Source: an uncultured archaeon
GTDB lineage: Archaea; Iainarchaeota; Iainarchaeia; Iainarchaeales; Iainarchaeaceae
Direction: 5' to 3'
Assembly: GCA_964577555.1 (NCBI GenBank)
Contig: CAZNZM010000008.1
Location: 1-32,000 of the forward strand
Length of the DNA: 32,000 bases
The notes beneath the pieces were generated by a model, which saw only the letters and a list, made by a program, of their open reading frames with translations, had not been told where the DNA came from and ran no database searches. The position numbers were made by a program, and so were the translations under genes. The first letter of the stretch is position 1, and each line of letters starts with the position of its first letter. Below are positions 1 to 27,533 of the stretch, in pieces.

Positions 1-1350
1 TGGGGTGTAGGTGTAGTTGTGGCAGTTGGTTTGTTCGTATTGTACGTATACTTTGAATGCCCATTCTAGTAGGTCGTAGAATCCGTGTCCTTTTGCGAGG
101 CTTTCTTGAGTTTGTGTGTTGTTGTAGTTGAATTGTGGTGGTTCTGCTTCTTTTGGGTTGTATACTTCTAGTTTGTAGTGTGTGTATTCTGAGTTTTTTA
201 TTATGTCTGTTGCGTTTTGAAGGTTTTGGGTGTCGCAGTATGTGTTGTTGTTTGGGTCTTGTACGCCATTGTTTTGGCATGTTATTGTTCTGTTTGTTAT
301 TATTTCGAATTGTTGGGTTGGTTTACTGTCGTCGCAGTTGGTCCAATCTGATGCGTCATTGCAGCTGTTGATGTTTATTTCTGTTATATATGTTGGTATT
401 TGGTTGTTTGTGTTGTCTGTTTTGTAGAGGCTTAGTGTGTTGCTTGTTTCTATTTTGCTTCCTACTGTTGGGGTTTGGCAGGTTCCTAGTTGTTTGTCGC
501 ATATTTTGTATGTTGCGTTGCTTCCGCATATGTTGGATTTGGCTGTTGTTATGTATTCCCAGTTTGTTTGGTCGTTTGAGCCGTATATGAGTGCGATTGG
601 GTGTAGTGTTTTGTTTGTTATTGTTGGGTTGTTGTTTGGGTTTAGTGATCCTATTCCTATTTCTTCTTGTTGTGAAATTTCTGTGTATGGTTTGTTTGAT
701 GTTGCGTATATTTCTGTGGATTGAAAGTCTTGGTATGCCCAACCGTTTTTTATTCCTGTGTTGTCTTTTTCTATTTCTGCGGTTGTTGCCACTCTTTTGG
801 TTCCTTGTACGGCTCCTCCTATTGTGGATGCTGCGCCTATTATTTTTAGGTGGTCGCTTATTTCTCTGAAGGTGCCGTTATTGCTGCATACTATGGATGA
901 TTCTGAGTTCATGTTGTAGAATGATTTTTCTTCGTATACTGCCATTACGAATGCGTTTTCGAATCCTGTTCCTGCTGCGTATTTTGCTTTGTATATTGTT
1001 GGGCCTACGTTTTTTGAGTAGACGTGTCTTGGTCCTCCGTCTGGGTGTCTTTGTGGTATTGTGTAGTTTGTGTATGTTTCTTGGTGTTCTATAAATTGGT
1101 GTTCGCTGTTTATTATTTTGTTTGTTCCTTTTTCGTCGTATGATATTGTCATTCCTGTTGTTGGGTTTGAGTTTTTTGTTGCGTTTGGGTAGGTTGGTGG
1201 GCATCCTGAGTAGTATGCTCCGTCTGTGTAGTTGTCGCTTATTGATATGCTTGTTGCTGTTGTTTGGTTTGTTATGAGTGTGAGTTGTATTAGTAGTAGT
1301 GTGGTTAGTATGGTTGTTGTGGTTTTGTTTTTTTTTGTTTGGTTTTGCAT
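1..1350 (-). CDS. Secreted/surface Thr-Asn-Gln-rich, Cys-containing protein, 3'-partial (runs off the window start); absent from the supplied ORF track
   Basis: Hand check: the + strand triplets 1-3, 4-6 ... 1348-1350 contain no TTA/CTA/TCA. The minus strand is therefore open for 450 codons from ATG 1350-1348 to the window edge. The N-terminus MQNQTKKNKTTTTILTTLLLIQLTLITNQTTATSISISD has a basic n-region and a hydrophobic core, like a signal peptide or anchor. It has 10 Cys and 14 N-x-S/T sequons by my count. The sense strand is almost only A and C: 13 of 442 non-Met/Trp codons end in G or T. No protein family recognised. Confidence 0.75.
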   Translation of the reverse strand, partial: MQNQTKKNKTTTTILTTLLLIQLTLITNQTTATSISISDNYTDGAYYSGCPPTYPNATKNSNPTTGMTISYDEKGTNKIINSEHQFIEHQETYTNYTIPQRHPDGGPRHVYSKNVGPTIYKAKYAAGTGFENAFVMAVYEEKSFYNMNSESSIVCSNNGTFREISDHLKIIGAASTIGGAVQGTKRVATTAEIEKDNTGIKNGWAYQDFQSTEIYATSNKPYTEISQQEEIGIGSLNPNNNPTITNKTLHPIALIYGSNDQTNWEYITTAKSNICGSNATYKICDKQLGTCQTPTVGSKIETSNTLSLYKTDNTNNQIPTYITEININSCNDASDWTNCDDSKPTQQFEIITNRTITCQNNGVQDPNNNTYCDTQNLQNATDIIKNSEYTHYKLEVYNPKEAEPPQFNYNNTQTQESLAKGHGFYDLLEWAFKVYVQYEQTNCHNYTYTP

Positions 1351-1403
1351 TTTAGAGCCTTTTGTTTTTGTGTTTTTTTTTGTTTAAGAGTTTAACGTTT
1401 TTC

Positions 1404-1416
1404 ATATTTTTATACT
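1404..1416 (-). promoter_or_regulatory. Candidate TATA box for the 1-1350 gene
   Basis: Minus-strand GTATAAAAATAT lies about 55-65 nt upstream of ATG 1350, implying a ~30-nt leader that is itself A/C-rich. Position only; no experimental support. Confidence 0.3.
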
Positions 1417-1644
1417 TTTTTAATTCTTTGGTTTTGGTCAAATCCTTATAGCTAGGTATGTTGTTTTATATAGTGTTAAATTCAAAAGATGGCAGTCCTG
1501 CACAAAAACGATAAAATTTAAAAACTTTGAAACTATTCTTTAATCATGTTTGGAAGTAGTTTATTTGATGAGTGTGTATATCTAATTGATAAGTGGTATC
1601 CCTAAACAAAGACATAAAAATGAATTAAAATATGAGATGACTTA

Positions 1645-1941
1645 ATGGATTTTCTTCAAGAAAACTTAAATCGTGCAAATAACTTTTTTTTTAGAAACGT
1701 TTTAATTAAAAAGGAAGATTCAAGAGGATTATGCGATATTGCCGTTGGGAATAGAGCAGTTGGAATAGAATTAAAAAAAGATTTAAATTCAAAGTCCCAG
1801 ATAAACAGACTTCAAGGACAAATTGATGATTATAAAGAAGATTATCAAGAAGGAGTAATTGTTGTTTTGGTTGGAAAAGTAGATAAATATGTTGAAAATG
1901 ATTTGAGACACAAATTAACAAAGAAATTGATTAGATTATAA
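1645..1941 (+). CDS. Small hypothetical protein (98 aa) with a PD-(D/E)xK plus QxxxY nuclease-like motif pattern
   Basis: ORF track. The sequence ...GLCDIAVGNRAVGIELKKD...LQGQIDDY... gives D-x11-E-L-K followed by Q-x3-Y, the order seen in RecB/Cas4-like restriction-endonuclease-fold proteins. It is very short for that fold and I did not recognise a specific family. Confidence 0.5.
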   Translation: MDFLQENLNRANNFFFRNVLIKKEDSRGLCDIAVGNRAVGIELKKDLNSKSQINRLQGQIDDYKEDYQEGVIVVLVGKVDKYVENDLRHKLTKKLIRL

Positions 1942-2222
1942 TAATTTTAGATTAAACCAATTTAGAATTAAGTTAATCAATAAGGGCGAAATCAATTTAT
2001 CCAGTTCAAAATCAAACCTTCCAGATCCTTTTGGGTTTAATTTTAAAAGTCTTTTCTAAAGTGGTACTATTTTTTGCAACTTATAAAATAAAAATAATGC
2101 ATATTAAAACTTATCAAACGCTTCTAATATTTTGCTTTCAGGTTATGCAGATTACAGAATTTAGATTTTAAAAGCATTAAATTTATTAAAATATTGTATT
2201 TAAATTTTAAAGTGTGATATAG

Positions 2223-2462
2223 GTGTTAAGCCGTAGAAAAACAAAAAAGCCCGTACCTAAAGTAGTTGGTCCTACAGGTTCAGACTATCAAATAAGAAAA
2301 ATAAGAAACGTGGAAGACTTAGTAAACGTGGAAGACTTAGTGGCAGAATTACGCGCCGAAGAGGTAAAGGCAGGTCCAAACCCTTCACGAAGACCTGTGA
2401 AAAGGATTGCTGAGTTGAAAAGGTTAATAAGACGTTTAAAAGGAGAAGGCAATTTTGATTAA
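2223..2462 (+). CDS. Small basic hypothetical protein (79 aa, GTG start)
   Basis: ORF track. It has no internal Met, so a GTG start at 2223 is required. G+C is higher than in the flanking spacer. It is convergent with the 2479-4479 gene, with a 16-bp gap. It contains in-frame tandem duplications. The C-terminal half AELRAEEVKAGPNPSRRPVKRIAELKRLIRRLKGE looks like a two-helix hairpin. Confidence 0.45.
   Translation: MLSRRKTKKPVPKVVGPTGSDYQIRKIRNVEDLVNVEDLVAELRAEEVKAGPNPSRRPVKRIAELKRLIRRLKGEGNFD
2307..2342 (+). repeat. In-frame 18-bp tandem duplication (NVEDLV x2)
   Basis: aacgtggaagacttagta (2307-2324) is directly followed by aacgtggaagacttagtg (2325-2342), 17/18 identical. It is preceded by a 9-bp tandem ataagaaaa/ataagaaac (2292-2309). 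Confidence 0.9.
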
Positions 2463-2478
2463 GCCAAAACGTTTTTAA

Positions 2479-4479
2479 TTACAAATTTCTTTTTGCCCAA
2501 ATAAGCGCTATTGCAACAATTCCGATTAGCAGTAAGATCCAAAAAATGTTTTGTGCCGAGCCAAGCCCTGAAAGCCCAATGGATAACCATGAATTTATTC
2601 CGGTAGGCTCTGCGTTTACTGTTTTTGTCTCTTCAGAAGTTTTCACTACTTGGCTTTGAGTATTTTTGTCCAAATCAATTATTTCGTTTTTTTCTTGTGT
2701 TTTGATTATTCTTGAGTATTTTTCGGTTAAAATTGTTTCCTCAATTTTTGTTTGGAAATATACTATTGCCCCTTTTTCAGACAAGCCGTTTAATGCGATT
2801 GTTCTTTTCCCTGAGGAATTTGCTTGTATTAAAAATTCCGAATTTTGCACTTTTACACCGTTTCCATTAACTATTATTTTGGCTTCTTTTGGCGTGGAAT
2901 TAGAAAATTCAAAAGTCAAAAAACCTGAGTCTTTTTTGAATTCAACAATTGCAGGAACATTAATGTTTATTTTTTCATCTTCCTTTTTCTCTTCCACTAC
3001 TTTGACAATGAATTGGCCTGAATTTATTGTACAATTCAAACCAGAATTAAAGTGTCCTCTAATCAAAAAATAAGCAGTCACTTCTTCAGCTTCGGAGTTT
3101 TTTGGTGACATTGCCTTGACTTTTATTGCGCCTTCTTGTTCAGAAAAAATTGTTTTTGAATCTTTTGAAACTTCTATTGCGACACCTTGGCTGTAATTGA
3201 TTGTCTCAATTTTGTCAATTTTAAAGTCTTCAGAACTATGGTTTTTGAAAGTGAAATAAATTGTTTTTTCGTTTCCCTTGGCAACGTTGAAGTTTTGTTT
3301 TACGATTGAAAGCCCATTGCAATTATTAGCTATCGGCTGGGTTTCCCCGTAATAAGTTTTTGTTGTTTCAAGATTGTTTGCAAAAAAAGCGGTTTCTGCT
3401 TCAGGTTTTGCATTTCCTGATTCTTTTTTGTCAACACTATTCTGATTATTGTTATTATTTGAAATAACTTTTTTTTCATTTTCAGCTGCTTGATTTTCGA
3501 TTGCTTTGGTTTCGTAATATTTGTTTTGCACGAAATAAGCCGTGCTTCCGTTTAAAATTTTTGAATTATAATTTCTGTTTTGATTGTTGTTTTCATTCAG
3601 ATAATATTTGGGGTTTTCATAAACCACTACACCAAATTCAGTTTTTGTTTCCCCAGAACCGCAATAAGTTCCATCTTTGAAAGTTCCGTTTACCGAAATT
3701 TCGGCAGGCGCAACTCCGGAAGAAAGATTGTCGGAAGCATCAACTTCAAATTCCACTACTCCGTAATTTCCCGCAGTAATGTATTTGTCAAATTTCAAAT
3801 TTGATGCGTTGACATAATTATTGCCAACATAGATTTGCACGTTATGGACTTCTAAGTCCATTGGCGAGTTGTTGCTCAAAAACAAAAAAGCCTTGGATTT
3901 TTCCCCAGAATAAACTTGGGGATTTTCCCCGGTTATTGCAAGCATGCTGCAATCAGCAATTTTTTGTGGGTGATAAGTTTGTCCTGTTAACGAAGCCGGC
4001 ATTTCCAAGATTGGATAATAATAAGCGCCATAATAAACAGGCCCGTAAACATAAACCCAATCAGGGTAATATATCCATGAAGCATTGTAATAATAGTATG
4101 TTGAAGGATAATAAGCATAGCTAAGGTAATAATTCGGGTAGATTTGATAATAATCATAATAAAGTATGTCTGGTGTTATTGAAGTAGTTGTTACAATAAC
4201 ATCAGGCGCTATTGTAGGACCAATGTCAAAAGAATACCAGCCAGGTTCAAAGTAATAATATTGGCTGTATGAGTAAATTCGGAAAGGGTAATGTATATAG
4301 TAATAAGGTGAAGAACCAACATAAGTTATGTAGCTGTATGGTGTTGCGGTTTTAACATATGTGCCGCCTGTATAAATTTCAAACGCCAAATCGCTATTTG
4401 CAAAAGAAAAATAAACACCATTCGTAATTGTTGCCATCAAAACAGTCACAATCAAGACAAATAATATTTTGATTTTCAT
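2479..4479 (-). CDS. Surface protein (666 aa): signal peptide, Tyr-rich module, three beta-sandwich-like repeats, Asn-rich linkers and a C-terminal TM anchor
   Basis: N-terminus MKIKILFVLIVTVLMATITNG is signal-peptide-like. C-terminus NIFWILLLIGIVAIALIWAKRNL is a TM helix with a basic tail. Three roughly 100-aa segments have alternating beta-strand-like patterns, each opened by a Cys (CSMLAITGENPQVYSGEKSKAFLFLSN..., CNGLSIVKQNFNVAKGNEKTIYFTFKN..., NINVPAIVEFKKDSGFLTFEFSN...). No precise family assigned. Confidence 0.85.
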   Translation of the reverse strand: MKIKILFVLIVTVLMATITNGVYFSFANSDLAFEIYTGGTYVKTATPYSYITYVGSSPYYYIHYPFRIYSYSQYYYFEPGWYSFDIGPTIAPDVIVTTTSITPDILYYDYYQIYPNYYLSYAYYPSTYYYYNASWIYYPDWVYVYGPVYYGAYYYPILEMPASLTGQTYHPQKIADCSMLAITGENPQVYSGEKSKAFLFLSNNSPMDLEVHNVQIYVGNNYVNASNLKFDKYITAGNYGVVEFEVDASDNLSSGVAPAEISVNGTFKDGTYCGSGETKTEFGVVVYENPKYYLNENNNQNRNYNSKILNGSTAYFVQNKYYETKAIENQAAENEKKVISNNNNNQNSVDKKESGNAKPEAETAFFANNLETTKTYYGETQPIANNCNGLSIVKQNFNVAKGNEKTIYFTFKNHSSEDFKIDKIETINYSQGVAIEVSKDSKTIFSEQEGAIKVKAMSPKNSEAEEVTAYFLIRGHFNSGLNCTINSGQFIVKVVEEKKEDEKININVPAIVEFKKDSGFLTFEFSNSTPKEAKIIVNGNGVKVQNSEFLIQANSSGKRTIALNGLSEKGAIVYFQTKIEETILTEKYSRIIKTQEKNEIIDLDKNTQSQVVKTSEETKTVNAEPTGINSWLSIGLSGLGSAQNIFWILLLIGIVAIALIWAKRNL

Positions 4480-4826
4480 TCGTTCACCTTAATATATAGG
4501 CGCTTCCAACCTTAATAAATTTATCCTTTTTTAACTATAATAAGTTAATATATTTGGTTTTTTTGTTTAAAAATTAACTTTTATTAAACATAAAACGCCA
4601 TAATTGTCTGATTTATCCAAAAAAATGGTTTTTTTTGAGGTGCTTTTTGTCTTTTTTTTGCTTGCAAAAATAGTATTTTGCTTTTATAATGTCGATTAGT
4701 TGTTTTGTCATTGAGTCGTTTTTAAAGACAAATTTTTTATATTATTTGAAGTTTTTAGCCAATTACTTAAAAATTGTTAATAGTCAAAAAACCTGTTTAA
4801 TTCATTTTTTTTAATTAGCTATAGAA

Positions 4827-5150
4827 TTATCTTCCGTCGTCTTTTATGTCAATTTTTAAATGTACATTTTCAGGAATTTCAACCCTCATGACCCTTCTTA
4901 AAGTACCGTCGTCGCCGTTTGTGTGTATGTCAATCATTCTTTTATGAACCCGCATTTGCCATTTTTCGTAAGTTTCTGTACCACCGCCACAAGGCCCTTT
5001 TCTTGTAGGAATAACCAGTTTTTTTGTTGGCAATGGAATTATGCCTGAATGCTTTGCACCAGCTTTTTCCGCCACATCAATTATTTTTTTGCAAATCTCT
5101 TCAAGTTTTGCATAATCAGTTGATGAGAGCCTTATCCTTGCAGTTTGCAT
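4827..5150 (-). CDS. rps10: 30S ribosomal protein S10 (uS10)
   Basis: ARIRLSSTDYAKLEEICKKIIDVAEKAGAKHSGIIPLPTKKLVIPTRKGPCGGGTETYEKWQMRVHKRMIDI is a typical uS10, and it lies directly downstream of aEF-1alpha. The track start at 5165 is a TTG; I prefer ATG 5150 (MQTARIRL). Confidence 0.95.
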   Translation of the reverse strand: MQTARIRLSSTDYAKLEEICKKIIDVAEKAGAKHSGIIPLPTKKLVIPTRKGPCGGGTETYEKWQMRVHKRMIDIHTNGDDGTLRRVMRVEIPENVHLKIDIKDDGR

Positions 5151-5226
5151 AAATACCAATTCCAACCCAAATTTTTAAAAAATCAAATTATCTAAAAACA
5201 AAAAAATTATTGCCAAGGAATTTTTT

Positions 5227-6507
5227 TTACCTTGGCGTTATCTTTAAAATTATTCCCGCAGCGACTGTTTCACCCATGTCCCTTATTGCGAATCTTCCAA
5301 GCTGTGGAAATTTGTTATATTCTTCGCAAGCCAACGGCTTTAAAGGAGTTATTTTGACAATTGCCGCGTCCCCAGTTTTAAGGAATTTGGGGTTTTCTTC
5401 AATTGTTGCACCTGTTTTAGGATCAATTTTTTTGAGTATTTGTGTAAAAGTACAACTTACTTGTGCAGTGTGTATGTGGAACACAGGCGTATAACCAACA
5501 GGAATTGCAGTAGGGTGTTTGAGCACAACAATTTGCGCTTCAAATTCTTTTGCAACTGTTGGCGGATTATTTACATGCCCTATAACATCGCCTCTTGAAA
5601 TGTCTTTTTTTTCAAGTCCTCTGACGTTGATGCCTATATTGTTTCCAGGAATTGCTTCAGGTATTTGCATATGATGTTCTTCAATAGACTTTACTTCGCC
5701 TGTTTTTCCCGAAGGCATTATTATGATTTTATCGTTCGGCTTCAAAACACCTGTTTCAACCCTTCCAACAGGCACCAATCCAACCCCTTTCGGATTATAA
5801 ACATCTTGTATTGGCAATCTAAGCGGCTTGTCTGTTGGCGGAACCGGTGCTTTAAGTTCGTCCAAAGCTTGAACCAAAGTAGGTCCTTTATACCAAGGCA
5901 TTTTGCCTTGCGATTTTGCAACGTTTTCGCCTTCCCAAGCCGAATAAGGTATGAATTTCAATTGGTCTTCCTTATACCCAATGCTTTTAAGCATCTTGAG
6001 CATTTCAGCGTGTACTTCCTTATACTTTGCTTCACTGTATTGGACTTCATCCATTTTGTTAAGTCCTACAATAAGTTGATTGACACCCATTACTTTTGCA
6101 AGAAACGCATGTTCCTTGACTTGTGGCTGCTCTTGCAATATGTTAGCTCCTGCTTTTGAAGCAACAACCAGCACAGCAGCATCAGCTTGCGATGTTCCAG
6201 TAATCATGTTTTTGATAAAGTCTCTGTGTCCTGGAGCATCAATAATCGTAAAATTGTTTTTTTGTCCAGTAAACTTTCTGTAAGCAACATCAATTGTTAC
6301 GCCCCTGTCTCTTTCTTCTTTAAGGTTGTCCATGACATAAGCAAACGCAAACGTGCCTTTTCCCTTTGCCTCTGCTTCTTCTTTTATTTTTCTATACTCT
6401 TGTTCAGGCAAAGCCCCAGTATCGTACAACAACCTTCCGATAGTTGTGGACTTGCCATTGTCAACATGGCCTATGAATACCAAATTAATATGTGGCTTTT
6501 CTGCCAT
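5227..6507 (-). CDS. tuf: Translation elongation factor aEF-1alpha
   Basis: [17 protein letters not shown] and NKMD GTPase motifs, with full-length similarity to archaeal EF-1alpha. ATG 6507 is preceded by GGAGG (6516-6520) at 8-nt spacing. The track start at 6522 is a TTG inside that SD region. Confidence 0.97.
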
Positions 6508-6772
6508 TTTATATCCCTCCAAAAACCTGATAAAACCTCAAAAGAAAGCCAAAGCTCCCCAATTTTAGCTACAAAGTAGTCCCTAAAAAGGTTTAAAAAG
6601 TCATGCCCAAAATGCCAACCAATTTTTTTAAGCTATTTTTATGTTTCATAAAAAAATAAAAAATAAATCAATTTTTTTTGTCTTAGCTCTCGGCTTGTTT
6701 TTTTTAAGACTCTCAAACCAATTTTTTTGCAAAAAATCGTTTTAAAACCATTCTTTACTTTTCGTTTTTTTT

Positions 6773-7360
6773 CTAACCTGCCAATAGTTTTTCCCTAGTT
6801 TTTTTGCGTGATAAAATAAAAATAACTCCAAAAGGTATTAACAGAACCAACAAAGGGTCAATTTCAGGCACAGGGGTTTTTTTCTCTTTAACCATTATAA
6901 CGACAGATTTAGCATTGTCAACTTTTACAGTTTCTGTATCAAGAGTGCACGGGGTACTGCCCGACAGTTTGCAACTTTCAAATTTTATAGTAAATATATA
7001 AATTCCTTTTTCAAAAGTTGGAGGCAAGGCACCACTACTAACAACATTATAAATCAGTATATCGTTTAACTCGTTTCCTCCAAGTGAAGTAGTAATAGTA
7101 ATAGTATAAATCGAATCTTCAGGATTTGTTTTTCCCAATTTTTTTAGTTCTATTTTTATTGTTACTGGATTAATTTGTGGATCAAATTTTTCTATTTTAT
7201 ACCATAGATTTATTTTATCTGGCGTGGGACTTTGATTTAAATAAAAAACATTTCTGCCGTTTGTATTCAAATCCAATTTAATCACGTTTTTTTCCTCTGC
7301 AAAAGATATTTGCGGCAAAAAAAATGACAGGATAATCAAGGCTAAAAAAGCTTTAATCAT
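6773..7360 (-). CDS. Small secreted, membrane-anchored protein (195 aa)
   Basis: N-terminal signal-like MIKAFLALIILSFFLPQISFAEE. The middle is beta-rich. The C-terminal PLLVLLIPFGVIFILSRKKTREK is a TM helix with a basic tail. It sits between aEF-2 and aEF-1alpha. No family recognised. Confidence 0.8.
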   Translation of the reverse strand: MIKAFLALIILSFFLPQISFAEEKNVIKLDLNTNGRNVFYLNQSPTPDKINLWYKIEKFDPQINPVTIKIELKKLGKTNPEDSIYTITITTSLGGNELNDILIYNVVSSGALPPTFEKGIYIFTIKFESCKLSGSTPCTLDTETVKVDNAKSVVIMVKEKKTPVPEIDPLLVLLIPFGVIFILSRKKTREKLLAG

Positions 7361-7374
7361 GGCATAATTATGGC

Positions 7375-7389
7375 TTTTTAATATTTTAA
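7375..7389 (-). promoter_or_regulatory. Candidate TATA box; near-leaderless start of the 6773-7360 gene
   Basis: Minus-strand TTAAAATATTAAAAA is centred about 23 nt upstream of ATG 7360. Confidence 0.4.
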
Positions 7390-7690
7390 CTTTTGTTTTT
7401 CGTTTTAATAGGCGTTGGCTTGGCGTTGTTTGCCAAACAGTGTTTGTTTTTTGCTATTTTAATTCAAAGTTTAACTATTTTTTTTAGCAGGGTATTTTTG
7501 GCGGAATTTTTGTCATTTTTTAATTGTTTTTTTTGTTTAAAATATAAATTGTTTCTTTTGTCTTTGGCTTGTTTTTTTTTAGACAATTTATTTTTTTAGT
7601 TTTGTTTTTCGTTTTTTTTTGCTTTGGCTTGCTGTTTTTTTGAGCTTTTTTTTGGCAACTTTATTTTTTTGTAATTTTTTTTAGCCTGTT

Positions 7691-7864
7691 TTTTGTTTTT
7701 TTTAGCCGAATTTTTTTTATTTTAAACTTTTTTTGTTTTTTTGCCAAGTTGTTTTTCAAACGGGTTTTTGTTTGATTTTTTTTATTTTTTAATTTAAAAT
7801 TCAAATTATCTGTTTTTTTTCTTTGAGGTTTTATTTTTTTTGTCATTGTTTTTTTTTGCGAGCC
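7691..7864 (+). repeat. Dispersed repeat, copy A (interrupted by about 65 bp at 7751-7814)
   Basis: 7691-7750 (ttttgttttttttagccgaattttttttattttaaactttttttgtttttttgccaagtt) and 7817-7864 (ttttctttgaggttttattttttttgtcattgtttttttttgcgagcc) align with 20031-20141. Confidence 0.8.
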
Positions 7865-8082
7865 GTTTTTTTTTGTTTGTCTTTTTGAGCCGATTTTTAT
7901 TTTTTTTCATTTTTTTTGCAAGTAGTTTTTTTGATGTTTTTTTTGCGAGCTGTTTTTTTTAGCCAAATTTATTTTTTTTATTGGTAAATTGATTTTTTCT
8001 TTCACTTTTGTTTTGAAGCTGTTTTTTTTTATTGCATTTTTTTGCTTGTTTTTACCACTTATTTTTTTAATTTGTTTTTTTT

Positions 8083-8143
8083 GCCAAGTTTTTTCTTTGA
8101 GGTTTTATTTTTTTTGTTTTTGTCATTGTTTTTTTTGCGAGCC
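8083..8143 (+). repeat. Dispersed repeat, copy B
   Basis: gccaagttttttctttgaggttttattttttttgtttttgtcattgttttttttgcgagcc matches 20082-20141 at about 56 of 61 positions by eye. Confidence 0.85.
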
Positions 8144-8190
8144 AAATTTTTATTTTTTTTTAATTTGTTTTTTTTGCCGTCTGTTGTTTT

Positions 8191-10386
8191 TTATTCAAGG
8201 AAGTAGCTTGCCGGTTTGATTTCAGCATCCATGCCTTTTCTTTTTCTTATTTCAGCAATAGTGTTTTTTTGCAATTCTCTTGGTAGGACTTCATAGCCTG
8301 CGTATTCTGCAGTCCATAGAACCCTGCCTTGGGTTGCACCCCTGATGCTTGCTGAAAAACCTATCAGTTCTTTTACCGGCGCTTTTCCGATTATTACGCT
8401 GCTATCCCCTTCTTGTCTCATTTCAATGATTTGGGTTCTTCTTGCTCCAAGTTCTTTTGAAACCGCTCCAAGGAAGTTTTCAGGCGCGGTTATTGTCAAT
8501 AATTGCTTTGGTTCAAGGAGTACAGGGTCTGCTGAAAGCATGCATGCATAAATTCCTTTTGTTACTGTTGGCAACATTTGTGCAGGACCCCGGTGTATTG
8601 CATCTTCGTGCAAAAGAGCATCTTCAAGTATAACCATTACCCCTTGGCATTTCTCTTTTGCAAGAGGTCCTTGGTCCATTGCATCCATGAATCCTTGTAT
8701 TACCAACTCCCTTATTTCAAATAACGCTTCAATTCCTCTTGTAGCATCTACCAACACGTTGTTGTTATGCACTGCCCAAATTCTTTTTGATAGTTCGTTG
8801 TCAAAACCACATTCTTGGAACATTGCCCATTTTTCTTTGTCTTTCGGTTTTACTTTTCCATCAAAATGCGTTTTTACCAGTTTTTCAAAAATTTCTTTTT
8901 TGATTGGTTCGACTCTCATTTGAAGTTTGTTGTGTTTATTAGGGCTTTTGGATTCAAGTGTTGGCGAAGCTTTGTTTATTGTTTCATGATATACTACTAT
9001 TGGTGGCGAGACTGTAACAGGTATGTTGTGCCCTTTTTCAATTCTGTATTGGTTGATTTCAAGGTGAAGTTCTCCCATTCCTGAAAGCAGGTGTTCTCCG
9101 GTTTCTTGGTTTATTGTTGCTTTCAAATTTGGGTCTTCTTTTGAAAGTTGCCTAAGCGTTTCAATGAGCCTTGGCAGGTCTTTAGTGTTTTTTGCTTCAA
9201 TTGAAACTGTTATTACTGGTTCAACTTCAGTCATGAAGCTTTCAAACGGTTTCATTTCAGGATCTGAAGAAATCGTTTCTCCAGCATAAACTTCTTTTAA
9301 TCCGACTATTGCGGCGATGTTTCCAGCAGGTATTTCGCTTACTTCTACAAAGTCCGGACCCATGAAAAGCCCTGCTTTTTGTATTTGTGCATCTTTTTGC
9401 AAACCTATGAGCCTTACTTTCATTCCCTTTGTTACTTTGCCAGAATAAACCCTGCCTGTTGCAATGTCCCCCGAGTGTTTGTCAACGCTTACATCAGTAA
9501 CCATCATTGAAAATACTCCATTTTCGGATGCTCCCACCATTGCCTTGCCGATTTCGCTTTCCATGTCGCCTTTCCATATTATTGGCATTCTGTATTGTTG
9601 AGCTTGCAATGGATTTGGAAGATGGTTTATAACCATTTCGAAAATGGCGTCAGACAACTTAGTTTTTTTTGAAAGTTCTTTTTGTTTGTCTTCTTTTAAG
9701 TATTTGAAAACATCGGCAAAAGTGATTCCATTCACATCCATTCTTGGCTTGGATATTGCCCATTTATTATATGCGCTTCCAAAGGTTACTGAACCATTTT
9801 GTACTTTCACTGTCCATTCGTCGGCAAATTTTTCAGGAGCATTTTTCTTTATGAGTGAATTGACTTGGATTATGACTTTGATAAACCTTTCCTGCATTTG
9901 CTTTTCGTCAAGTTGAAGTTCGTTGATTAGCCTGTCAACTTTGTTTATGAAAAGCACGGGCTTTACATACTCTCTCAGAGCTTGCCTGATCACGGTTTCA
10001 GTTTGCGGCATTACTCCTTCAACAGCATCTACAACAAGAATGACTCCGTCAACAGCTCTCATTGCCCTAATGACTTCCCCGCCAAAGTCAACATGGCCCG
10101 GAGTGTCAATCAGATTTACCAAATAGTCTTCGTTTTTGTAATTATGCAAAAGCGAAATATTTGCTGCGTTTATTGTTATTCCTCTTGCCTGCTCTTGGTC
10201 TTCAAAATCCATTACTCTTTGTTGTCCAGCCAATTCTTCGCTCATCAGCCCTGAAGCCGCTATAAGCGAATCCGCAAGAGTTGATTTTCCGTGATCAATG
10301 TGTGCCACTATTCCCATGTTTCTGATGTTTTTTCTGTTATTCATTAGGTTTGCGGCAAGTTTTACAATGTCCTCTTTTTTAGCCAT
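8191..10386 (-). CDS. fusA: Translation elongation factor aEF-2
   Basis: AHIDHGKST, DTPGHVDF and NKVD GTPase motifs, with full-length EF-2 architecture (731 aa). It lies downstream of rps7. Confidence 0.97.
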   Translation of the reverse strand: MAKKEDIVKLAANLMNNRKNIRNMGIVAHIDHGKSTLADSLIAASGLMSEELAGQQRVMDFEDQEQARGITINAANISLLHNYKNEDYLVNLIDTPGHVDFGGEVIRAMRAVDGVILVVDAVEGVMPQTETVIRQALREYVKPVLFINKVDRLINELQLDEKQMQERFIKVIIQVNSLIKKNAPEKFADEWTVKVQNGSVTFGSAYNKWAISKPRMDVNGITFADVFKYLKEDKQKELSKKTKLSDAIFEMVINHLPNPLQAQQYRMPIIWKGDMESEIGKAMVGASENGVFSMMVTDVSVDKHSGDIATGRVYSGKVTKGMKVRLIGLQKDAQIQKAGLFMGPDFVEVSEIPAGNIAAIVGLKEVYAGETISSDPEMKPFESFMTEVEPVITVSIEAKNTKDLPRLIETLRQLSKEDPNLKATINQETGEHLLSGMGELHLEINQYRIEKGHNIPVTVSPPIVVYHETINKASPTLESKSPNKHNKLQMRVEPIKKEIFEKLVKTHFDGKVKPKDKEKWAMFQECGFDNELSKRIWAVHNNNVLVDATRGIEALFEIRELVIQGFMDAMDQGPLAKEKCQGVMVILEDALLHEDAIHRGPAQMLPTVTKGIYACMLSADPVLLEPKQLLTITAPENFLGAVSKELGARRTQIIEMRQEGDSSVIIGKAPVKELIGFSASIRGATQGRVLWTAEYAGYEVLPRELQKNTIAEIRKRKGMDAEIKPASYFLE

Positions 10387-10403
10387 ATAAAATCACAATT
10401 TTT

Positions 10404-11024
10404 TTATCTTGAAGCTTTGGCAATTCTTTCAACTTCGTCGCGTCTCCTCACGCTGTAGCTTGTATTGTCCTCTACTGAAGCCGCAATAAGCTCTTTTGCA
10501 AGCGCTTCCGCAGCCGAAGTTTTGTTGTTGAACGAGCCTTGGAATGCTGCAAGTGCTATGTTTTTTAGAGCTTCATCAACTTTCTTTAATGGTGCTACAT
10601 CCACAGAAACAGTATAATATACTCCGCCTCTTTGTATTCTTGTAGTGTCTTCCCTTGGCCCAGCATTTTGAATTGCATCAATCAAAACCTGAATAGGGTT
10701 TTTTCCAGTTCTTTTTTCCACAAGGTCAAAGGCTTCTTCCACAATATGCATTGCTTGGATTTTTTTTCCGCATGAACCCCTGCCTCTTATAAATTTTCCA
10801 GACAATTTTCTTTTTCCTTGGCCAGTTCTCATTATTTTGTTGATGAGCCTCTCAACTACGCTCAATTTTCCTTTTTCAAACCTTTTTCTTGTTTTTTTTC
10901 CAAAAGTATGCGGTATTTTTTTGCTTTCAACGCTTACGTATTTTTGAAGACTTGAATCTTTTATCACCACTTCGGCGGGATCCCATTTTCCAAAAACTAA
11001 TGCAGTGGTTGGTTTTTCAGACAT
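10404..11024 (-). CDS. rps7: 30S ribosomal protein S7 (uS7)
   Basis: Typical uS7 core (...VERLINKIMRTGQGKRKLSGKF...QVLIDAIQNAGPREDTTRIQRGG...). ATG 11024 (MSEKPTT...) is preferred: GAGGT (11031-11035) lies 6 nt upstream, and the longer track ORF would overlap rps12. Confidence 0.95.
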   Translation of the reverse strand: MSEKPTTALVFGKWDPAEVVIKDSSLQKYVSVESKKIPHTFGKKTRKRFEKGKLSVVERLINKIMRTGQGKRKLSGKFIRGRGSCGKKIQAMHIVEEAFDLVEKRTGKNPIQVLIDAIQNAGPREDTTRIQRGGVYYTVSVDVAPLKKVDEALKNIALAAFQGSFNNKTSAAEALAKELIAASVEDNTSYSVRRRDEVERIAKASR

Positions 11025-11028
11025 TTGA

Positions 11029-11460
11029 TTACCTCTTGACTTTCTCTTTCTTTCCAGTGCGGAGCTGTTGCAAGGCAACTCCATTAACATGCGTTACCCT
11101 GTATTTTACCCCCCAAAGATCTCCTTTAGGGCCTCCTTGTGCTCCGCCTATTCCTTCAACAATTACTTCGTCGTGTTCTTCAATGAAAGTGATTGCCTTG
11201 TCTTTAGGAGCCAATGCAGTTAATTGTCTTCCGTTTTTTATGAGTTGAACCCTTACACATTTTCTTATTCCGGAATTAGGTTGTTTTGCTTCAACCCCGC
11301 GTTTTTCAATAACAATGCCTCTTGCCTGTGGCGCGCCTTCAATAAGTTCCTTCTTATATTTACCCATGCGCTTCTTCATTTTTTTGACATACCTTTCGTC
11401 TTTTTTATTCCATTTTTTTCTTTTCTTTTCAAGACTTCTTGCAGAAAATTCTCCTGCCAT
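11029..11460 (-). CDS. rps12: 30S ribosomal protein S12 (uS12)
   Basis: [27 protein letters not shown]... is a hallmark uS12 sequence. GGTGA (11465-11469) lies 4 nt upstream of the ATG. Confidence 0.97.
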
Positions 11461-11464
11461 TCTT

Positions 11465-11866
11465 TCACCTTATTCTAACTTCATCAATCCCGTAATTTCT
11501 TTTTGCCAATTCCTTAACTTTTTTCAATCTATTAAAATTCCTAAGTATGATTTTTTTTCCTTCGGCATCCGTTTTCACGAATGCTACTTTTTTTTCATTT
11601 ATTTTTTTTATTTCCACTTTTTCAATTTTTGACCTGAAAAACGCTTTTTTAAGGAAATCCTCCGGTTTTTCAACATATTCAAAAAGCTCAACTTTTTTAT
11701 TTATTTTTTTGATGTGTTTTTCTACAGTCGATCCGTTTTTTCCTATTGCTTTCTTCATGTATTTTTCAGGTATGAGAAAAACAACGCCATCTTTGCTTAT
11801 GACGCAGTCTTTCGCAGTAACTCTTGCAATATTGTCAAGAGTATTAATCATTTGTATTTGTTCCAT
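11465..11866 (-). CDS. nusA: Archaeal NusA-like protein (two KH domains)
   Basis: It has a GKNGSTV (GxxG) KH signature, a size of about 133 aa, and the conserved position between rpl30e and rps12. The track start at 11878 is a GTG; ATG 11866 (MEQIQM) is preferred. Confidence 0.9.
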
Positions 11867-11882
11867 CCCGAGTTCCACGAAA

Positions 11883-19782: not shown

Positions 19783-20320
19783 TTGCACAAAAGATTTGTT
19801 GGTTTTTTACCAGCTTTTTTTGTTTTGCAAGTCAAACGGTTTTTATTGTTTTTTTTTAGTTTTTTTGGAAAGTATTTTATTTTCTTAGCTGTTTTTTTTG
19901 TGTTTTTTTTTGTCAATTTTTTTTTGTTTTTTTTTTTTGGCGGGTTGTTTTTTTTGTGGTCTTTTTTTTTGTTATTTTTTTTTGAGCCGTTTTTTTTGTC
20001 TTTTTTTTTGTGTTTTTTTTTGTCAATTTTTTTTGTTTTTTCGAACCAAATTTTTTTGTTTTAAACTTTTTTGTTTTTTTTACCAAGTTTTTTCTTTGAG
20101 GTTTTATTTTTTTGTTTTTGACATTGTTTTTTTTGGCGAGCGTTTTTTTGTCAATTTTTTTGATTTATTTTATTTTTTGTTTTTGTTGGCTTGGTTTTTT
20201 TTGTTGAGCCAATGTTGTTTTTTTTGGAAATTGTTTTTTTCTTTTTGGTTTGGATTGTCTTTTTTGCGAGCCGTTTTTTTTAGTCGGTTTATTTTCTTGG
20301 TGCTTTGATTTTTTAGCTGT
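19783..20320 (+). repeat. Second strand-asymmetric oligo-T array (about 0.5 kb, non-coding)
   Basis: It has the same architecture and the same strand polarity as 7393-8190. It contains an internal duplicate ttttttttgtgtttttttttgtcaatttttttt (about 19889-19925 and 20003-20035) and a ttttgcgagccgtttttttt word (about 20266-20285) that also occurs at about 7853-7874. Confidence 0.85.
20031..20141 (+). repeat. Dispersed repeat, copy C (uninterrupted form)
   Basis: It aligns over its whole length with copy A (7691-7750 plus 7817-7864), and its right 60 bp align with copy B (8083-8143). Confidence 0.85.
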
Positions 20321-20322
20321 TT

Positions 20323-20349
20323 GCGGCAACATTTTCAATTTGTTTCCGC
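20323..20349. promoter_or_regulatory. Imperfect inverted repeat GCGGCAAC-N11-GTTTCCGC; candidate operator upstream of rbkR
   Basis: The arms match at 7 of 8 positions. This is the only G/C-rich dyad in an otherwise T-rich leader, about 60-90 nt upstream of ATG 20411. A TATA-like ttttttaagta lies near 20385-20395. Confidence 0.3.
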
Positions 20350-26439: not shown

Positions 26440-27441
26440 TCATATTTTAATTTTTTTGACTTCCACTTTTGCTTCTTCAAGCAATTCCAACGCCTCTTTT
26501 CCAAGCGGATAATCATAATTGTAAATAACACGCTTTATTCCGGCATTAATTATCATTTTACTGCAAGTTAAACAAGGGCTGTAAGTAGTATAAATGTCAG
26601 AGTCTTTTGTTGAAATCCCGTGATACGCTGCTTGAACTATTGCGTTTTCCTCTGCATGAGAGCATCTGCATTCATCAAGTTTCGTGCCTTCTTTTGCAAA
26701 TGAATTACACCTTAAACACCCGCCTTCGTTGCAATTTCTTACTCTTCGAGGAGTTCCATTATAACCTGTTGAAATAATCCTTTTTTCCCTCACTATAACA
26801 GCCCCAATTTTTCTCTTTATGCAATTACTCCTTGTTGCTATCTCTTTTGCAATATTCATAAAATACTCGTCCCAATCAGGCCTTTTAAAATCAACAGGCG
26901 TTTGAAGCAATACAGAATCAATTTTTTGGAATAATTCGGCAAGCGAACCATTGTTTTCAATTGTATGTCCAGCCATTGCAGCACAAACATCCAATTGCTG
27001 ACTACTGCTTTCCCCAGAAGAACTTTCAAATCTTTCCATTTTTCTAAATTCCTCAATGGTTTTAGGGTCACCTTCCCTATTTCTTTTCAATATTCTTTCA
27101 AACCTTGTTTTTTCATCAGAAATAATATTCCAAAGGTGAAAATTTCCGATTTTTTGCAATTCTTTTATTTCCTCTGGGTTGCGCAAAGAATCAATTACAT
27201 AATTTTTGTCTTTGGACATTTTGCCTACAATTCTTTTTGACAGATACCCGTTGCCATATTTTTTTCTCAATTCATTGCCTTTAGAAATCAAATTTTCCCT
27301 TGTAACAGGCAATTTTTCTTCAGCAAGAATTTCCCTGAGTTCATCAGAAAGAGAAAGATACCCAAAACTCTTTGATTTAAGGTATTCGCAAGCAGTTGTC
27401 TTGCCGGCACAATATTTTCCAGTAACTCCAATAACTATCAT
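26440..27441 (-). CDS. Fusion protein: N-terminal P-loop nucleotide/nucleoside kinase-like domain plus C-terminal dCMP deaminase (ComEB type)
   Basis: The N-terminus has the Walker A motif GVTGKYCAGKTT, followed by a roughly 180-aa kinase-like region. The C-terminus has WDEYFMNIAKEIATRSNC...GAVIV...GYNGTP...CSHAEENAI...PCLTCSKMIINAGIKRVIY, the zinc-binding HAE/PCxxC pattern of dCMP deaminases. Met-25 (ATG 27441) is preferred because the Walker A motif then lies close to the N-terminus. Confidence 0.85.
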   Translation of the reverse strand: MIVIGVTGKYCAGKTTACEYLKSKSFGYLSLSDELREILAEEKLPVTRENLISKGNELRKKYGNGYLSKRIVGKMSKDKNYVIDSLRNPEEIKELQKIGNFHLWNIISDEKTRFERILKRNREGDPKTIEEFRKMERFESSSGESSSQQLDVCAAMAGHTIENNGSLAELFQKIDSVLLQTPVDFKRPDWDEYFMNIAKEIATRSNCIKRKIGAVIVREKRIISTGYNGTPRRVRNCNEGGCLRCNSFAKEGTKLDECRCSHAEENAIVQAAYHGISTKDSDIYTTYSPCLTCSKMIINAGIKRVIYNYDYPLGKEALELLEEAKVEVKKIKI

Positions 27442-27468
27442 TGTTGAAAAAAATTCTTCGGACAAGGG

Positions 27469-27478
27469 TTTATAAAAT
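27469..27478 (-). promoter_or_regulatory. Candidate TATA box for the kinase::deaminase gene
   Basis: Minus-strand ATTTTATAAA is centred about 32 nt upstream of ATG 27441, implying a very short leader. Confidence 0.35.
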
Positions 27479-27533
27479 GTAGCAAAAAAAAATTCTATTT
27501 CAAACCAATCCAACTAAAATAAAATTCCTAAAG

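Follow-up and report, generated by a model that had tools for sequence, protein, structure and literature searches.

The left end of the window, by which we mean the whole 32,000-nt stretch of DNA analyzed here, carries a gene written almost entirely in A and C: its sense strand, as the codon counts support well, has lost G and T at every site where the protein can do without them. The minus strand is free of stop codons from an ATG at 1350 to base 1, and translating the reverse complement of 1..1350 gives the first 450 codons of an open reading frame (ORF) that extends beyond the window edge, as an earlier note on this DNA had described. Third bases in the 442 codons other than ATG and TGG are A 263 times, C 166 times, T 12 times and G once; that is, 429 of 442 end in A or C and 13 in G or T, the same count as in that note. 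Given a frequency of 0.53, the probability of at least 429 of 442 is ~1e-110, as it is for 475 of 488 once the ORF is extended as described below. Over all codons, third-position composition is A.58, C.37, G.02, and T.03, an A+C fraction of 0.95 vs. 0.37–0.67 in the 28 other ORFs of the window. Third-position T in those 28 ranges from 0.17 to 0.42, which bears out the earlier claim that other genes in the window use NNT codons freely.

The A+C content of first and second positions is shifted as well (0.61 and 0.69, respectively), and the most common codon is AAC (n = 48). G makes up 23% of first positions vs. 2% of third positions, which is a coding signature, and the probability of 450 open codons given the composition of the ORF is 2e-9. 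In 200-nt sliding windows, G+T on the plus strand is 0.65–0.80 over 1–1400 and ~0.45–0.59 just beyond; earlier hand counts for nt 1–60 (46/60) and 601–660 (50/60) were reproduced. Elsewhere in the window, strand skew is limited to two large A-rich non-coding tracts, which lie on the same strand and share the ranking A>>C>G,T. The list of ORFs compiled for the window contains only four entries within 1–1350, namely 356–742 (−), 437–724 (+), 591–869 (+), and 878–1204 (−); the 450-codon frame is missing from it because ORFs truncated at either end are excluded.

An independent JGI contig (L001, from two samples) covers the junction at 1350–1650 and the whole ORF at 100% identity with no mismatch. 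It ends 144 nt past the window edge, which adds 48 codons and lengthens the ORF (L001 positions 10375–11868) to at least 498 codons, or 1494 nt. Further leftward extension was attempted using the last 70 amino acids and the exact 25-mer at the end of L001, and neither had metagenome matches. The ORF adjoins a conserved cluster (rpoH-rpoB-rpoA-NusA-S12-S7-aEF2-aEF1alpha-S10), beside which it occupies a variable “surface-protein” slot that holds different genes in two other contigs (L004 and L005); a neighboring 666-aa secreted protein at the same locus is normally coded. It is well supported that the ORF is a true gene on the chromosome of an Iainarchaeum-like DPANN archaeon, a tiny, symbiotic-type organism.

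Codon choice within each amino acid family follows a rule that we regard as well supported, A wherever permitted and otherwise C, and the rule holds at third positions, at the first position of Leu codons, and visibly at replacement sites. Four-fold sites of the ORF comprise A 159, C 34, G 1, and T 3, compared to A.33, T.375, C.14, and G.155 in the other minus-strand genes of the window. Two-fold pyrimidine (NNY) codons end in C 145 times and in T 8 times, two-fold purine (NNR) codons end in A 94 times and never in G, and Ile is encoded by ATA (36), ATC (7), or ATT (1). For Leu, the ORF uses CTA 12 and CTC 5 times with no TTA or TTG, vs. TTA 104, TTG 258, and CTA 32 in the background, where half of Leu codons are TTR. 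Because T is avoided at this synonymous first position, the bias acts on nucleotides rather than on tRNA choice. Highly expressed genes in the window (aEF-1alpha, aEF-2, and ribosomal proteins) are near background in codon use, with a third-position A+C of 0.51 for aEF-1alpha. Pooled elongation factor and ribosomal protein genes stand only slightly apart from other genes (NNY ending in C, 0.51 vs. 0.39; four-fold A, 0.39 vs. 0.33), and their four-fold T is.33; the corresponding values for the ORF are 0.94 for NNY ending in C,.80 for four-fold A, and.02 for four-fold T. The Leu counts and the near-background aEF-1alpha agree with the earlier proposal of a constraint at the nucleic-acid level as opposed to ordinary codon bias.

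Searching related genomes for other NNA/NNC-only genes, as the earlier note had suggested, turned up a second case. In another Iainarchaeum/Diapherotrites metagenome-assembled genome (MAG), on contig L005, a gene for a secreted subtilase obeys the A/C rule over its first ~240 codons; third-position A+C is 0.87–1.0 at codons ~35–235 and 0.3–0.6 from codon ~245 of the same ORF. This segment is ~730 nt long and encodes a signal peptide, a CarboxypepD_reg-like domain, a Cys-rich motif, and a PKD domain; Pfam matches were PKD_4 (30.8 bits) and CarboxypepD_reg, both ordinary DPANN extracellular domains. Its four-fold sites are A 50, C 6, T 2, and G 0, its NNY codons end in C 55 times and in T 4 times, and its NNR codons end in A 56 times and never in G. 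G and T are not purged from the 5′ UTR or from codons 20–44. The earlier statement that the bias is gene-specific therefore stands within ~41 kb of the same genome but not beyond it, as the rule recurs in subtilase genes of the related MAG.

The A/C-coded part of the subtilase continues in frame into a host-type gene, with the joint falling between domains. The first 127 nt of L007, a contig from the same assembly, are exactly L005 740–866, and this identity stops where A/C coding stops; beyond it the two subtilases are only 32% identical. The codon-usage boundary in L005 is thus also an assembly-graph branch to a second subtilase. A further contig, L009, breaks within the module, and contigs repeatedly terminate inside A/C-coded segments. 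That the A/C rule marks a recombining, swappable 5′ module of subtilase genes in this MAG is well supported. No A/C-coded segments were found in the other subtilase-bearing contigs (archaeal L012 and L013; L014 and L015, with GC 0.25–0.55; bacterial-looking L008). A 438-aa secreted protein of L005 and the second gene of L007 are normally coded. We also considered a mirror class of “G/T-coded” genes and rejected it, as the second gene of L007 (third-position G+T 0.72) is the end of a continuum and far less extreme.

The skew reaches into the 5′ leader, as claimed earlier, but does not stop abruptly near 1380 and instead declines in a slope to ~1485. In the A/C-rich leader proper (1351..1395, minus strand), 30-nt windows give plus-strand G+T of 0.80–0.87; G+T stays at up to 0.87 to ~1395, is 0.63–0.77 to ~1480, and is 0.33 from 1485, upstream of which composition is ordinary. 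Two A9 runs are present on the minus strand, one in codons 5–8 (1328..1336), which may be a slippage tract, and one inside the leader (1373–1381). A putative promoter, judged by the archaeal TATA consensus, is the TATA-like box gtataaaaata (1405..1415, minus strand), ~55–65 nt upstream of the ATG, and a second motif, actatataaa (1464..1473, minus strand), may serve as an alternative. The transcript start predicted from these positions, near 1385, is where the strongest skew sets in. A search against Rfam matched only a tRNA-Asp, and no integrase, tRNA, or repeat boundary was seen at 1380–1650.

The N-terminal 450 residues (at least 498 with the extension) belong to what is, on well-supported grounds, an orphan protein that is secreted or anchored at the surface, is rich in Thr, Asn, and Gln, and contains Cys. 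A hydrophobic segment at codons 13–27 (TILTTLLLIQLTLIT; 1270..1314, minus strand), preceded by KKNK, resembles a signal peptide or N-terminal anchor and is the only strongly hydrophobic segment in the product, with the maximal Kyte-Doolittle 15-residue window (1.95) beginning at residue 13. This agrees with the signal-peptide-like start reported before and, as a sequence feature, points to secretion or surface anchoring. Single-sequence AlphaFold2 placed a helix at residues 3–27; the rest of the model was unusable (pLDDT 31.9). Thr, Asn, and Gln together make up 33% of the product, and Gln is enriched threefold. A recount returned the same 10 Cys and 14 N-X-S/T sequons as the earlier note, the counts behind its proposal of a disulfide-bonded, heavily N-glycosylatable surface protein. 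The sequon count should be read with the caveat that Asn and Thr are residues favored by A/C-only codons.

No homologue of the product was found among 5.8e9 proteins, nor by exhaustive phmmer against 1.84e9 representatives. Pfam (E ≤ 10), NCBIfam, and PDB sequences gave no match to it either, and tblastn and blastp against all collected loci and the ORF itself revealed no paralogue and no internal repeat. Together with PHROGs, these empty searches accord with the first impression that the protein has no recognizable family. However, when the L005 module was used as query in a word-index protein search, it failed to retrieve even its own partial copy, P0001. This shows such searches to be blind to A/C composition, and orphan status is weaker evidence than it seems.

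The explanation that we favor, with a probability of roughly 40%, is a mutational drive that is local and strand-specific, linked to recombining modules of surface-protein genes, and filtered by selection on the protein; we rate it somewhat above the possibilities raised before, namely foreign origin, an unstructured and terminator-free mRNA, and site avoidance. The antisense strand (the plus strand of the window) would be repeatedly single-stranded or re-synthesized from the sense strand. Lesions on it (C to U, A to hypoxanthine, G to 8-oxoG) would push it toward T and then G, and would be read on the sense strand as G→A, T→C, and C→A, with A as the sink and C retained at sites whose only synonymous choices are pyrimidines. 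The G and T left at first and second positions would be those that purifying selection on the protein preserves. The most plausible source of a single-stranded intermediate would be recombination or gene conversion among paralogous surface-protein modules, either through resection that leaves a 3′ tail or through copying of the 5′ end of the mRNA into cDNA; our reason is that composition changes at the very point where a recombination or assembly-graph junction lies. Cytosine deamination is ~100-fold faster in single-stranded DNA, and strand-coordinated change has precedents in the vertebrate mitochondrial H strand and in resection- or APOBEC-type clusters.

Compliance of 95–100% would be hard to achieve by selection at each site and easy by mutational drive, since synonymous selection is weak in this genome (0.51 for aEF-1alpha). 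A neighboring gene in the L005 MAG shows a mirror tendency on its sense strand (NNY ending in T, 92%; four-fold T, 69%; NNR ending in G, 47%), consistent with strong lesion-type strand asymmetry in the lineage. The A-rich non-coding tracts of the window, which are unconstrained and on the same strand, share the A>>C>G,T ranking, and we count this for a mutational drive.

Several observations weigh against mutational drive. No reverse transcriptase, nuclease, or dedicated DNA deaminase appears in the gene tables near the ORF or module loci, and the ORF is 100% identical in two assemblies, with no sign of ongoing hypervariation. Targeting would have to be very precise, because highly expressed genes a few kb away lack the bias at four-fold sites. 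A pure collapse by G→A and T→C predicts a four-fold A:C ratio of ~49:51, whereas 82:18 is observed (p = 8e-22), so a C→A change or long equilibration must be assumed, and transitions alone do not explain the threefold enrichment of Gln. The known transcription-associated asymmetry is an excess of G+T on the sense strand, and the polarity of the ORF is opposite to it. The two cases both occupy the 5′ portion of a gene for a secreted protein, a pattern that an mRNA-level explanation predicts likewise; we count this against drive as well.

Two known systems resemble what a mutational drive would produce. Genes of vertebrate mitochondrial DNA with L-strand sense have A/C-rich synonymous sites with nearly no G, and the amino acid composition of their products shifts accordingly; the opposite strand is single-stranded for part of the time and gains C→T and A→G changes. 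However, the mitochondrial bias is replicon-wide, graded by single-stranded time, and milder, with T still common at third positions, whereas in the ORF and module it is local and sharp-edged, includes 97% of codons, and leaves other chromosomal genes unaffected. APOBEC hypermutation of retroviral minus-strand cDNA and clusters at resected breaks are localized, of a single polarity, and linked to reverse transcription or recombination, and changes to the antisense strand there show up as G→A (and T→C) in the sense sequence. Such clusters differ in being somatic or limited to one generation and usually destructive; the state of the ORF is fixed and filtered by selection, its 498-codon frame is open, and no reverse transcriptase or deaminase was found near it.

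Among the alternatives, selection on the transcript fares best, though we consider it rather unlikely overall. It holds that the first 0.7–1.5 kb of secreted-protein mRNAs are kept free of G and U, and hence of folding and oligo-U, which would protect expression when ribosomes lag, e.g., during membrane targeting. In archaea, oligo-U signals termination, both intrinsic and by FttA/aCPSF1, and the ORF has no sense-strand runs of four or more T, vs. 3–27 per kb in most other genes. Its predicted mRNA folding energy is −0.074 kcal/mol/nt, compared to −0.14 to −0.21 in 21 other genes. The skew begins roughly at the expected transcript start; the ORF and the L005 module are both 5′-anchored in genes with signal-peptide-like starts; elongation factor and ribosomal protein genes lean slightly the same way; and A:C at free sites resembles the background preference, as if G and T were merely forbidden (Ile ATA:ATC vs. 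background, p = 0.67). A 2026 paper also offers a bacterial precedent, in which base bias can be selected as a guard against premature termination (PMC13323073). Selection of this kind would nonetheless have to be very strong at nearly all synonymous positions, although it is almost absent from aEF-1alpha of the same genome, and it would have to spare the normally coded secreted proteins of the same loci (the 666-aa neighbor, the 438-aa protein of L005, and the second gene of L007). Purged length is inconsistent (~730 nt in L005, >1494 nt in the ORF), the 5′ UTR and codons 20–44 of L005 are unpurged where structure matters most for initiation, and the module ends in L005 at a recombination junction with no obvious RNA feature. 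Among known RNAs, the (CAA)n core of the TMV omega leader is similarly A/C-rich with essentially no folding, but leaders of this type are non-coding and tens of nt long, compared to at least 1.5 kb of coding sequence here. Transcription-associated asymmetry (bacteria, mammals) and purine loading likewise follow transcription units and set in near the start site; the ORF differs in sign (A+C excess on the coding strand) and exceeds them in magnitude more than tenfold.

Quite unlikely, in our view, is a foreign module recently acquired from an unsampled donor, such as a virus, plasmid, or element with a long single-stranded phase, and not yet ameliorated; replication asymmetry in the donor would have given its entire coding strand the A/C composition. 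The composition of the ORF is atypical, and the compositional edges are abrupt. The position in the variable slot, the repeated contig ends within A/C segments, and the attachment of one identical module to two different gene bodies would also fit acquisition, as would the lack of homologues in both protein collections, an argument weakened by the insensitivity of those searches to A/C composition. However, searches of PHROGs, IMG/VR (with both proteins), and GenBank phages (blastn) gave no viral relative, leaving the viral or plasmid origin suggested earlier with no supporting match. The right-hand boundary, the only side covered, has neither a tRNA nor a repeat, and no integrase is seen there. 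The L005 module sits in frame at a domain boundary of a host-type gene and encodes ordinary DPANN extracellular domains. Our literature searches turned up no organism or element of such genome-wide composition, and we know of none.

Translational codon adaptation of a very highly expressed, S-layer-type gene, with NNC and NNA codons Watson-Crick-read by G34/U34 tRNAs, is very improbable. The direction matches the slight preference of elongation factor and ribosomal protein genes (C up in NNY, A up at four-fold sites) and the NNC-over-NNU usage of highly expressed genes at two-fold pyrimidine codons. Yet TTA, itself an NNA codon, is wholly avoided in favor of CTA and CTC, aEF-1alpha is unbiased, first and second positions are shifted too, and the L005 bias covers only part of one ORF, switching at ~codon 240. 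The Leu first-position result and this within-ORF switch contradict codon adaptation.

A diversity-generating retroelement (DGR) target or template, shaped by adenine-directed mutagenic retrohoming, has an equally slim chance of being correct. DGRs are common in DPANN, and those of DPANN and CPR target surface proteins and have abundant AAC codons; the ORF comes from the same host group, apparently encodes a surface protein, has AAC as its commonest codon, and lies among A/C segments at which assemblies break. However, 60-nt windows of the ORF, compared to the window and all loci at non-A positions with ≤2 mismatches, gave 0 matches on both strands in the ~150 kb searched, i.e., no second copy differing at A positions. 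No RVT family was present among the called genes of L001, L010, and L016 (the window plus 9 kb), so that reverse transcriptase is absent from these 41 kb, and neither a template nor a variable repeat was found in the searched DNA. The region is N-terminal and >1.4 kb, ten times longer than the ~100-nt C-terminal variable repeat of a DGR; such a repeat would show depletion rather than enrichment of A, and the ORF is identical between two assemblies.

Least credible is an assembly chimera or sequencing artifact: the ORF lies at the contig edge, L001 ends shortly past it, and Logan contig L002 ends at window position 1376, but that endpoint falls in a low-complexity, A-rich leader resembling other tracts, the chimeric contig end proposed earlier is contradicted by the L001 match across 1350–1650, and the intact frame with G and T kept at first and second positions could be produced only by selection.

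We found no description of A/C-only genes from archaea in the literature. A broader proposal, which we hold a little more tentatively than mutational drive itself, is that an undescribed, locus-targeted process in Iainarchaeota-type DPANN rewrites 5′ surface-protein modules into A/C code, whether by hypermutation or gene conversion via antisense single-stranded DNA or through a requirement for G/U-free mRNA. Either way, the oligo-A/C tracts flanking translation and transcription operons would be its non-coding product.

In practical terms, A/C-coded genes break assemblies, drop from ORF lists at contig ends, and elude homology searches through compositional filters, and for these reasons they are probably under-counted in metagenomes. 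If a localized process does push 97% of codons toward a pair of non-complementary bases and leaves the protein functional, the gene is a natural experiment on how far nucleotide-level forces can reshape a protein, here to one-third Thr, Asn, and Gln. The finding may alternatively reflect an unrecognized need for structure-free, U-tract-free mRNA in archaeal expression. It may otherwise point to an unknown mechanism by which surface-protein genes of archaea undergo targeted, strand-specific mutation or gene conversion, which, if true, would be relevant to how DPANN symbionts vary the proteins that contact their hosts.

The minus-strand frame at the left edge of the window is open for 450 uninterrupted codons from an ATG at 1350 (the reverse complement of 1..1350), and in L001, an overlapping JGI contig, it continues leftward to 498 codons, where that contig ends. 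A and C account for 75% of the sense strand of this gene, hereafter the A/C-coded ORF. Recounting bore out the figures of the earlier note: G+T makes up exactly 46/60 and 50/60 of the plus strand at nt 1–60 and 601–660, of the 442 codons for residues other than Met and Trp, 13 have G or T in third place (A 263, C 166, T 12, G 1), and the product carries 10 Cys and 14 sequons. Third-position A+C is 0.95, vs. 0.37–0.67 in 28 further ORFs across the window, in all of which NNT codons occur freely; measured against a background of 0.53, the skew is far outside chance (P about 1e-110). The gene is missing from the ORF list, which shows four short out-of-frame ORFs instead, because ORFs running off an end are left out. 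The probability that 450 codons would stay open by chance at the base composition of this ORF is 2e-9. G occupies 23% of first positions vs. 2% of third positions, and this contrast is a coding signature, left only by selection on a protein.

A chimeric contig end, one of the origins initially suggested, is effectively excluded: L001, which is independent and was seen in two samples, is identical across window 1–11724 except at its own tip. The overlapping Logan contig L002 ends at window position 1376, within the low-complexity A-rich leader of the ORF. At the tip of L001 (11783–11868, beyond the window's left edge) two copies of the 14-mer AAATCACATGGACA are separated by 72 nt (ITWT ... DKDGNPIPD ... 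ITWT); judging from this sequence, a tandem array of calcium-binding-like repeats, on which assemblies break, may begin where L001 ends. The skew does reach into the upstream leader, as first described, but rather than stopping abruptly it slopes away: up to about 1395 it is very strong, between there and about 1480 it is moderate, and farther upstream the composition is ordinary. Two A9 homopolymers lie on the minus strand, at 1373–1381 in the leader and at 1328–1336 in codons 5–8. In bacteria, slippage at homopolymers like these gives rise to phase variation of surface proteins.

The codon rule is simple: A where the amino acid permits, and otherwise C. Over the 498 codons, four-fold sites hold A 159, C 34, G 1, and T 3 (background A.33, C.14, G.155, T.375), two-fold pyrimidine (NNY) codons C 145 and T 8 (background C.39), two-fold purine (NNR) codons A 94 and G 0 (background A.73), and Ile ATA/ATC/ATT 36/7/1 (background 277/47/290). 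Leucine is encoded by CTA (12) and CTC (5), with no TTA or TTG, which supply half of background Leu codons; the avoidance of T therefore reaches a first position where the change is silent, and TTA is rejected even though it is an NNA codon, which excludes a wobble or tRNA explanation. Genes for translation factors and ribosomal proteins shift only slightly in the same direction (aEF-1alpha third-position A+C is 0.51), so synonymous selection in this genome is weak. With TTA/TTG avoided and aEF-1alpha unadapted, translational selection is effectively excluded as the cause. The shift extends to first and second positions (A+C 0.61 and 0.69), and the product is rich in Thr (15%), Asn (11%), and Gln (6%) and low in Val, Leu, Phe, and Arg.

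Two global protein searches, which are insensitive to such a composition, returned no homologue of this product, and there was no match in Pfam, NCBIfam, PHROG, or PDB; the ORF belongs to none of the families tested, and its structure model was unusable. It adjoins genes for S10, aEF-1alpha, aEF-2, S7, S12, NusA, and RNA polymerase subunits. The closest genomes are Candidatus Iainarchaeum/'Diapherotrites' MAGs (DPANN); one of their contigs, L006, shares about 71% nucleotide identity across the EF genes. A 666-aa Tyr-rich orphan (2479–4479, minus strand) with an N-terminal signal-like segment is conserved beside S10 in Iainarchaeum MAGs, with 37% identity to proteins in contigs L004 and L005. 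It matched no family in Pfam, NCBIfam, or PHROG, its L005 homologue has a C-terminal transmembrane anchor, and we take the orphan for a probable surface protein specific to the lineage. The slot past this gene varies among these MAGs and holds different large secreted proteins. Elsewhere in the window, amid riboflavin and isoprenoid genes, 26440–27513 (minus strand) encodes a 357-aa fusion of AAA_17/18 kinase-like and dCMP/cytidine deaminase (MafB19-deam) domains; its top NCBIfam model is an anti-phage dCTP deaminase, at 152 bits, far under the cut-off of 400.

The skew was originally taken to be gene-specific. That holds for the roughly 41 kb of this genome covered by the window and a further contig, L010, where no second A/C-coded gene occurs, but not for the lineage, since the pattern recurs in the MAG GCA_038895675.1. 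Its contig L005 encodes a secreted S8 subtilase of 1453 aa, lipobox-like at the N-terminus and A/C-coded from the start to codon ~240. Third-position A+C in this module is 0.87–1.0, save for a short normal patch at codons ~20–44, and past the module it falls to 0.3–0.6 within about 10 codons. The grammar is identical to that of the A/C-coded ORF (four-fold A 50, C 6, T 2, G 0; NNY C 55, T 4; NNR A 56, G 0; TTA/TTG 0). The module (L005 150–884, L007 1–127, L009 1–364) comprises a lipobox-like signal, CarboxypepD_reg, a Cys-rich motif, and PKD, and CarboxypepD_reg and PKD_4 (30.8 bits, cut-off 27) are genuine extracellular domains.

In contig L007 of that assembly, the opening 127 nt, and no more, are identical to L005 740–866. 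As 127 is a common maximum k-mer length, we read this as k-mer overlap left by the assembler, and take the shared stretch for a probable branch in the assembly graph. Identity stops where A/C coding ends, and L007 then runs into another S8 subtilase, only 32% identical. L009, which comes from a different MAG, matches L005 at 99.98% identity but breaks inside the module. The overlap, the divergent bodies, and the break show that the module behaves as a unit that is repeated or recombines, with its edge at the change in composition. A/C-coded segments were not found in other subtilase-bearing contigs (archaeal L012 and L013, and L014 and L015). L007 also encodes, at 3268–6156, a 963-codon secreted protein with three CarboxypepD_reg domains and SpaA, whose sense strand shows a mirror tendency (NNY T-ending 92%, four-fold T 69%, NNR G-ending 47%); its L004 orthologue (7605–10946) has ordinary codon usage.

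The minus strand of the window, which bears the A/C-coded ORF, also carries A-rich tracts at 7400–8190 and 19800–20330 (A.63–.65, C.14–.17, G.08–.09, T.11–.14), flanking the aEF-2/aEF-1alpha genes and the rpoH operon, with further examples at L010 1861–2310 and L004 4940–5300. These tracts are non-coding, with stops in all frames, and span 450–800 nt with 31–38 oligo-A(6–10) runs, one every ~12–20 nt, between which lie short conserved G/C motifs (cggctcgc, cttggc, ttgac, taaaacctcaaag). Rfam gave no match. Read on the plus strand they become dozens of T8–9 runs, which look like one-directional archaeal terminator-like signals. The ranking A>>C>G,T is common to the tracts and the free sites of the A/C-coded ORF, and the ORF leader resembles the tracts, which may be a non-coding outcome of whatever process shaped the ORF.

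As the cause of A/C coding we tentatively favor strand-specific mutational drive over selection on the transcript, with a probability of about 0.4. Near-total synonymous compliance is implausible by per-site selection where aEF-1alpha is unadapted; what is affected is not an mRNA stretch of constant length but a recombining module, sharply bounded in frame; the L005 5'UTR and codons 20–44 are spared; other secreted proteins of the same loci are normally coded; and the neighboring 963-codon gene leans the opposite way, which suggests that lesion-type strand asymmetry is strong in this lineage. From established DNA-damage chemistry, we infer that single-strand damage to the antisense strand (C to U, A to hypoxanthine, G to 8-oxoG) would in every case end at T; seen from the sense strand, this would yield the observed grammar, with A as the sink and C kept where only a pyrimidine is synonymous. 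A simple two-transition model fails, predicting four-fold A:C of about 49:51 vs. the observed 82:18 (p = 8e-22). The antisense strand could be exposed as a resected recombination tail or as cDNA of the 5' mRNA, either of which would fit the 5' anchoring and the identical paralogue modules; no RT or nuclease was seen.

Selection on the mRNA itself is less likely. The transcript is predicted to be almost structure-free (−0.074 kcal/mol/nt, vs. −0.14 to −0.21 in 21 other genes), short palindromes are roughly halved, and the sense strand has no runs of T≥4, vs. 3–27 per kb in most other genes. The onset of the skew near the predicted start site, the association with secreted proteins, and the background-like A:C ratio all speak for such selection, but avoidance of premature termination is weakened as its rationale by a 656-aa polytopic membrane orphan (27534–29504, minus strand) with a very T-rich sense strand (T3 0.42), whose 27 runs of T≥4 per kb show that many internal oligo-T tracts are tolerated in an expressed gene. 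Import from a skewed donor is less likely still on the sequence available, which covers only the right-hand flank of the gene. A replicon-wide skew is effectively excluded, as is a DGR (no partner repeat was found in the DNA scanned, no RT lies in the 41 kb, and the assemblies do not differ, giving no evidence of current hypervariation). Searches prompted by the viral origin once suggested gave no viral or phage relative.

Among known phenomena, A/C coding comes closest to strand asymmetry of the mitochondrial type and to strand-coordinated mutation of single-stranded DNA, which leave the same signature but differ in scale and targeting, and to G-poor unstructured leaders, which share the RNA property at another scale. 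No description of genes of this type was found in the literature searched. We classify A/C coding as an extreme, module-restricted strand-compositional asymmetry. It is confirmed, very unusual, and in this lineage both recurrent and module-level, and the chance that a new mechanism lies behind it is substantial.
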